Below, piece by piece: positions 13,621 through 14,367 of a DNA stretch of 14,367 nucleotides. The notes beneath the pieces were generated by a model. That model was not told the DNA's origin and searched no databases. It saw only the letters and a list, made by a program, of their open reading frames with translations. A program made the translations under genes and the position numbers. The first letter of the stretch is position 1. Every line of letters starts with the position of its first letter. The stretch comes from a virus (taxonomy: Duplodnaviria; Heunggongvirae; Uroviricota; Caudoviricetes): IMG/VR virus record IMGVR_UViG_2654587792_000011; one strand, written 5' to 3'.

Positions 13621-13806
13621 ATGACCGTTATCGAGTATATCCAGGAAAATCCAGATTGCAGTAGAGAAGATATATCCCTCGCACTTGGAAGAAGCGCAAC
13701 TTCTATCAGTAATGAATTATCACGGTTATTGTGGAATGGGTTAATAGTACGAACTGGAGAAAAAAACAAAATGATTCTGTACTGCGTAAACAATCTGCCG
13801 TTTTGA
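13621..13806 (+). CDS. Small winged-helix-like protein whose stop codon is supplied by the IS terminus
   Basis: ATG 13621 with SD AAGGGA (13611-13616), 61 aa. The stop TGA 13804-13806 is the first three bases of the IS inverted repeat, so the native C-terminus may have been replaced. Confidence 0.45.
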   Translation: MTVIEYIQENPDCSREDISLALGRSATSISNELSRLLWNGLIVRTGEKNKMILYCVNNLPF

Positions 13807-13875
13807 AGTGGCACACTGAATTTGGCCACCTGAACAGAGGTGATATGCTCACCTCAGAACAACACAGGTGCTCCA

Positions 13876-14178
13876 ATGAAAAAAAGAAATTTCAGCGCAG
13901 AGTTTAAACGCGAATCCGCTCAACTGGTTGTTGACCAGAACTACACGGTGGCAGATGCCGCCAAAGCTATGGATGTTGGCCTTTCCACAATGACAAGATG
14001 GATCAAACAACTGCGTGATGAGCGTCAGGGCAAAACACCAAAAGCCTCTCCGATAACACCAGAACAAATCGAAATACGTGAGCTGAGGAAAAAGCTACAA
14101 CGCATTGAAATGGAGAATGAAATATTAAAAAAGGCTACCGCGCTCTTGATGTCAGACTCCCTGAACAGTTCTCGATAA
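13876..14178 (+). CDS. IS3-family transposase OrfA (IS911-like)
   Basis: [49 protein letters not shown]... closely matches IS911 OrfA as I recall it. Heptad leucines in the C-terminal part. Confidence 0.85.
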
Positions 14179-14367
14179 TCGGGAAACTCAGAGCGCATTA
14201 TCCTGTGGCCACACTCTGCCATGTGTTCGGGGTTCATCGCAGCAGCTACAGATACTGGAAAAACCGTCTTGAAAAACCAGACGGCAGACGGGCTGTATTA
14301 CGCAGTCAGGTACTTGAGCTACATGGCATCAGCCACGGTTCGGCCGGAGCAAGAAGCATTGCCACAA
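14127..14367 (+). CDS. IS3-family transposase OrfB, N-terminal part, reached by programmed -1 frameshift (partial)
   Basis: Slippery A-AAA-AAG at 14127-14133. The -1 frame reads [80 protein letters not shown], a typical IS3 OrfB N-terminus. Confidence 0.7.

Follow-up and report, generated by a model that had tools for sequence, protein, structure and literature searches.

The window, the whole 14,367-nt stretch of DNA analysed here, is the entire draft contig JHTM01000101.1 of GCA_001506145.1 (annotated E. coli), and it ends inside a copy of IS911. Its + strand leads from a cI-like S24 repressor gene (10732-11427) toward int, and at the far end of this strand a short phage winged-helix gene is interrupted by the element. 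The features of the window are collected in Table 1. The matches to C4 antisense RNA and isrK fall inside or at the start of a Rha/ASH-type gene of 282 aa (8653-9501), an arrangement that suggests a P1/P7-like antisense-controlled antirepressor module. A perfect (AGATGA)x7 tandem repeat occupies 12975-13016, inside an ORF of 70 aa (12811-13023) that occurs in relatives in 62-, 64-, 66-, 68- and 70-aa versions; every alignment loses register at about 12950-13000, and the repeat looks like an in-frame variable-number repeat. No known defence-system identity was found for the neighbouring cassette genes, for which PADLOC gave generic HTH matches only.

Table 1 Features of the window and the matches or observations behind them
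Feature	Position	Strand	Basis or remark
Rfam STnc100 sRNA match	257-447	-	139 bits; near the other contig end
Phage tRNA gene, Arg-tct	524-600	-
Phage tRNA gene, Arg-tcg	614-690	-
Phage tRNA gene, Met-cat	698-773	-
Rfam C4 antisense RNA	9259-9346	-	75 bits
Rfam isrK	9368-9444	-	62 bits
Truncated winged-helix (MarR-like) gene, 61 native codons and an IS-supplied TGA	13621-13806	+
TTT, final native triplet, presumed 3-bp target	13801-13803		duplication at right junction inferred
IS911 left part, 564 of 1249 bp	13804-14367	+	L015 identity, PGAP label; stops at contig end
IRL, left terminal inverted repeat	13804-13839	+	27 nt pair with IRR in full copy
orfA, 100 aa, HTH/leucine-zipper transposition regulator	13876-14178	+	PF01527, E=6e-14; NF033516 positions 1-85
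AAAAAAG slippery heptamer, programmed -1 frameshift from orfA to orfB	14127-14133	+	PGAP 'programmed frameshift' on full copy
orfB 5' part, -1 frame, open to window end	14124-14367	+	NF033516 positions 79-156

The IS911 copy at the contig end

The last 564 bp of the window correspond to positions 1-564 of an IS911 copy of 1249 bp and have the same orientation as the gene that they interrupt. This stretch opens TGAAGTGGCACACTGAATTTGGCCACC, the first IS911 bases at 13804 being TGAAGTGGCACACTG... Alignment with a complete element from E. coli 19KM2326N (L015:1501-2749; aligned part L015:1501-2064) gave 562 identical positions of 564, and PGAP labels that element 'IS3-like element IS911 family transposase, programmed frameshift'. 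A megablast search with the same stretch found it in 4645 of 5426 complete E. coli genomes, where the best matches are 99.1-99.6% identical and annotated by PGAP as IS911 family. A chance match is no concern because 564 bp agree at 99.6%. On sequence identity the element is IS911, of the IS3 family, a name given by the match to a PGAP-labelled copy. An earlier note on this DNA had called it an IS911-like element, which the match to the complete copy bears out; the start proposed there, 13790, lies 14 bases too early, and the bases from 13790 to 13803 still belong to the native phage gene.

The element is bounded by 5'-TG...CA-3' and by imperfect inverted repeats, of which IRL lies in the window; the two arms can be paired in the L015 copy. 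The published length of the IS911 repeat is 36 bp, and of the 36 positions in the IS911 IRR oligonucleotide that has been published, the IRR of the L015 copy shares 35 (PMC2909936). The rve domain of OrfB (PF00665, E=5e-32) is read only in the full copy, the catalytic DDE region lying beyond the contig end. The complete copy is flanked by a 3-bp duplication, TCT.

Two substitutions separate the window from this reference. The first, G>A at 14002 (IS position 199), changes OrfA V43I, and the exact V43I protein occurs in two assemblies only, that of the window and a sister assembly in which it lies on a 740-nt contig with the same junction. The second, C>T at 14269 (IS position 466), replaces Pro by Leu in OrfB and is common to L002 (GCA_977880285.1), a further contig with this junction.

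The leader of the element (13804-13895) has a predicted fold of -23.9 kcal/mol, which is more stable than that of shuffled sequences (z=-2.7). The Shine-Dalgarno-like AGGUG of orfA lies within a GAGGUGA/UCACCUC hairpin and a CACCUG/CAGGUG pairing, and the predicted fold may restrict translation of read-through transcripts.

The interrupted regulator gene

We aligned the window with the uninterrupted locus of E. coli SF-088. The two are identical up to ...CTGCCGTTT (13803) and then diverge, the window continuing with TGAAGTGG... and SF-088 with GGATACAGC... The related prophage without the IS carries the uninterrupted gene, of 82 aa (L001:6622-6870), and places IS911 between codons 61 and 62 of this 82-codon phage winged-helix gene. 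The ORF in the window translates as MTVIEY...CVNNLPF and then meets TGA at 13804-13806. As the earlier note had proposed, this stop is the first three bases of the IS; the in-frame TGA is simply the one-in-three case in which an element that starts with TGA meets a codon boundary. The replacement of the native C-terminus, also proposed there, is borne out as well, since 21 native residues (GYSNPLSVMFNQLLKQVRNGN) are lost from the 82-aa form.

A search of 5.8 billion proteins returned a small family of 14 clusters. Its complete members have 73, 76, 82, 83 or 84 aa, and all of them retain the LSVMFNQ... segment. Apart from the IS-truncated form, the only sequences ending at or near residue 61 were genes left partial by a contig end; among intact homologues, whose complete forms span 73-84 aa, none ended at this residue. 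It would be possible to read the 61-aa form as a natural short allele, or the junction as an assembly chimera, with no insertion in either case, and the window is indeed a draft contig built from short reads, with a repeat at its end. We hold this to be extremely improbable, because the same junction recurs in independent assemblies and in one metagenome, the 564 bp of IS on the contig contain copy-specific SNPs, and a short allele would have to end where no complete homologue does. The 61-aa ORF is an IS911-truncated allele, and the lesion is real, ordinary and the product of a known kind of event.

The intact protein matches phrog_1687 ('MarR family') with E=8e-24 over residues 1-80, and NCBI names members of its clusters 'MarR family transcriptional regulator'. 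Pfam matches stay below the gathering scores (MarR_2, 21.4 bits with a cutoff of 27; HTH_24, 20.0 with a cutoff of 21.9), and NCBIfam matches fall far under cutoff. An AlphaFold model of the intact protein, built from 8 sequences, has a three-helix bundle and a beta-hairpin wing that form a winged-helix (wHTH) core over residues 1-53, with helices at 3-9, 15-22 and 26-38, strands at 42-44 and 51-53, and pLDDT of 82-90 over residues 1-40. The core is followed by a low-confidence linker and a C-terminal helix (67-80) at pLDDT 39-51. Over codons 1-79, comparison with an 84-aa homologue from an O145:H28 genome gave 7 synonymous and 4 non-synonymous codon differences, which is consistent with purifying selection on the gene. 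The regulator gene is taken as real because of the phrog_1687 match, the wHTH model and the mostly synonymous changes. The truncated product should, on the model, retain the predicted wHTH core and lose a conserved tail of 21 residues that is predicted to be helical.

Several other states of the gene were seen. The intact 82-aa gene lacks a RefSeq/PGAP annotation in SF-088 (L001:6612-6870) and in O55:H7 RM12579 (L063:12288-12535), and the 84-aa homologue is annotated in the O145:H28 genome. Many contigs have frameshift variants at the A7 run (13760-13766) that turn GEKNKM into GEKKQND..., and 33 contigs share one such form. An 18-bp in-frame deletion allele, found in 17 contigs, drops FGYSNP right around the IS site (13795-13812), and a 73-aa allele ending ...MFNQ is present in 88 contigs.

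The right side of the element and the spread of the junction

The contig ends at 14367, 98 nt beyond IS position 466 (14269), which is the last copy-specific SNP. An end at this distance is consistent with k-1 for a k=99 assembly, given other IS911 copies in the genome. The short-read assembly came to a halt within the IS because from there on nothing distinguishes this copy from the others in the genome, and all other junction contigs likewise break in or at IS911. The contig end is to be taken as a repeat-induced assembly break. We searched for the right junction, as IRR followed by 0-8 nt and the native downstream sequence, and found no match in IMG/VR, in the JGI metagenomes or in the GTDB species genomes. 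The native downstream 30-mer occurs in 43 IMG/VR contigs, none of them from the two junction-bearing IMG genomes, and all 43 have the intact regulator gene.

These observations bear on whether the element was simply inserted or marks the breakpoint of a rearrangement, in which the arm with DUF4752, Ea22, xis and int was deleted or moved by IS911 recombination or an adjacent deletion, leaving a locked remnant and no TTT duplication. Material for such recombination is at hand: the contig ends exactly where the copy-specific SNPs run out, which points to other IS911 copies in the genome, and IS911 is common, being present at 80% coverage or more in 2723 of 5426 complete E. coli genomes and at up to 24 places in each. 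A right junction with native downstream DNA turned up in none of the scanned collections, and the downstream 30-mer is missing from the IMG/VR contigs of both junction-bearing IMG genomes. However, these absences come from collections made up almost wholly of short-read drafts, which break at IS copies, and a short contig with the int end may simply have escaped IMG/VR viral calling. Simple insertion with a 3-bp duplication is, moreover, what is usual for IS911, and the complete L015 copy shows exactly such a duplication. We therefore regard the breakpoint as the less likely reading, though a serious alternative, and favour simple insertion, on priors, as probable. Taken as a whole, the locus is probably best read as an IS911 insertion (copy-out-paste-in) in the early-left arm of a lambdoid E. 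coli prophage that truncates a MarR-like gene, the simple form of the event being inferred.

A simple insertion would have duplicated TTT, and the downstream arm would still be present after the 1.25-kb IS. It would put TTTGGATACAGCAATCC after the right end of the IS, ...GTTGACCACTTCA. The right junction to be expected is ...CACTTCA-TTT-GGATACAGCAATCCCCTAAG, with ...GGCCAGTTTTTGTTGACCACTTCA as the right-end sequence of the element.

At least eight contigs, from drafts or metagenomes, have the junction (among them the window, L002, L004, L006, L013, L014 and L061, with L005 ending 'TG'). Assemblies that carry it include GCA_977880285.1, GCA_002075295.1 and GCA_053258315.1, and GCA_001265595.1 (JHRS01) is a sister of the assembly to which the window belongs. 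The junction is present in 0 of 5426 complete E. coli genomes, in which alignments stop at 13806, and the intact region is present in 139 of them. An exact scan for the left junction gave two contigs in IMG/VR, both of which end 95-96 nt into the IS, and none in the GTDB species genomes or the JGI metagenomes. The exact 61-aa, 75-aa and OrfA proteins occur only on short draft or metagenome contigs. The carriers represent at least three prophage mosaics: the type of the window, L002, L005 and L013; that of L004, in which the immunity region differs and identity over the replication genes is 95.5%; and that of L014.

An identical junction in at least three mosaics might point to a hot spot, or to selection that favours a locked prophage or the truncated allele, rather than to one neutral ancestral event. 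In the case of selection, the truncated regulator, the IS between immunity and xis-int (sometimes with a group II intron), or both could lock the prophage, and a locked prophage might be favoured in certain E. coli lineages. We think this very unlikely. Lambdoid prophages recombine freely, and carriers and non-carriers share one sequence over the 800 nt upstream of the junction, which is thus uninformative on descent. Where the IS copies share a stretch that can be compared, they differ by at most 1 nt. With identical flanks and IS copies so close, one ancestral insertion followed by phage recombination is inseparable from recurrence. The target has no IR-like sequence beyond chance, and the absence of the junction from the 5426 complete genomes, set against 139 with the intact region, also argues against this reading. 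Targeted insertion beside an IR-like sequence was considered and rejected: the best candidate has 13 matches of 27, a score reached by 71-79% of shuffles.

Six metagenome or Logan contigs end at or close to the site, L008-L010 exactly at the insertion point and L007, L011 and L012 2 nt past it, in the native 'GG'. Ends exactly at the junction are what a branch in the assembly graph would produce if filled and empty alleles coexisted. IMG/VR was searched for a third allele that diverges after TTTGG, and none turned up.

Possible effects on the leftward arm and comparison with known systems

In intact relatives the regulator is followed by DUF4752, ead/Ea22-like genes, small ORFs, DUF4222, the excisionase, the integrase and the bacterial flank. 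This downstream arm is about 5 kb long in SF-088 and RM12579. O55:H7 RM12579 is 99.2% identical to the window over 10300-13803, and the chromosomal neighbour of the prophage is mlrA in this strain and yecE in SF-088. The earlier note had suggested that the IS cut the cassette off from pL/N-side genes that might come next. The intact relatives place DUF4752, ead/Ea22-like genes, xis, int and the attachment flank there instead. The + strand runs from the cI-like repressor to int, and the cassette of that note is therefore already on the leftward arm; judged by gene order, IS911 separates it from the int end of the prophage, not from pL/N genes.

We also scanned for promoters. A consensus scan gave none on either strand across or near the junction, and the best junction-straddling hexamer pairs in an explicit search matched 6-7 of 12 positions. 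IS911 carries an outward -35 in IRR, and the part of its transient junction promoter that lies in IRL is the inward -10 alone (review PMC9330008). The IS end in the window therefore cannot drive flanking genes, because IRL holds only that inward -10. The outward or hybrid promoter that the earlier note had thought possible is thus not detectable, the hexamer pairs being weak and the IRL element facing inward. At the modelled right junction of a simple insertion, the TTGACC of IRR faces CAATCC-type sequences at 16-18 bp and no -10 was found.

No terminator-like site was found on the + strand of the full IS, so that no such site keeps phage transcripts from running into it. Read-through from the phage operon would enter IS911 at its left end, sense to orfA, and polarity, if there is any, would be due to Rho or to lost translational coupling. 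The ATG of DUF4752 overlaps the last 11 nt of the regulator gene (in SF-088, L001 6860 against 6870), and IS911 would break translational coupling between the two. An untranslated or foreign stretch would then lie in the path of leftward transcription to xis and int, and excision could drop. If IS911 does part xis and int from leftward transcription, the prophage lineage may excise poorly, which would affect stable gene retention. The significance of the locus is mainly for annotation, since the 61-aa ORF is an IS-truncated pseudogene or allele of an 82-aa phage regulator and not a native short gene.

The same site also carries a more complex insertion. In L002 (10183-11122), which has the same junction, a group II intron starting GTGTG interrupts IS911 beyond IS position 762. 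This intron-split IS911 has one difference over 939 nt from the IS911::intron of E. coli AST205 (L062:332-3364), where the intron, 2270 nt in length, matches Rfam RF00029 and codes for a reverse transcriptase (ltrA). The intron E.c.I4 has been reported at specific positions in IS911 and related IS3-family transposase genes (PMC3522654). The L002 intron likewise lies inside IS911 and may be of the E.c.I4 type, and the copy in the window ends before position 762.

IS insertions are known in lambdoid and Stx E. coli prophages, an example being IS629 in O157:H7 prophages. As in those cases, the locus described here has an IS3-family element in an early-region gene, with a possible polar effect or crippling of the prophage, whereas both the IS and the target gene are different. 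The interrupted gene resembles the MarR-like phage regulators of phrog_1687, in that its intact 82-aa protein matches the profile and is modelled as a wHTH, and it is much shorter than classical MarR proteins. With IS911 of Shigella and E. coli (IS3 group), the window shares the TGAAGTGG... terminus, the 100-aa orfA, the AAAAAAG heptamer and the -1-frame orfB. The remaining IS911 features, namely the length of 1249 bp, the imperfect terminal repeats, the rve domain, the 3-bp duplication and the IRR agreement at 35 of 36 positions, are seen in the L015 reference, from which the copy in the window differs in having the left 564 bp only and in two private or rare substitutions (14002 and 14269).
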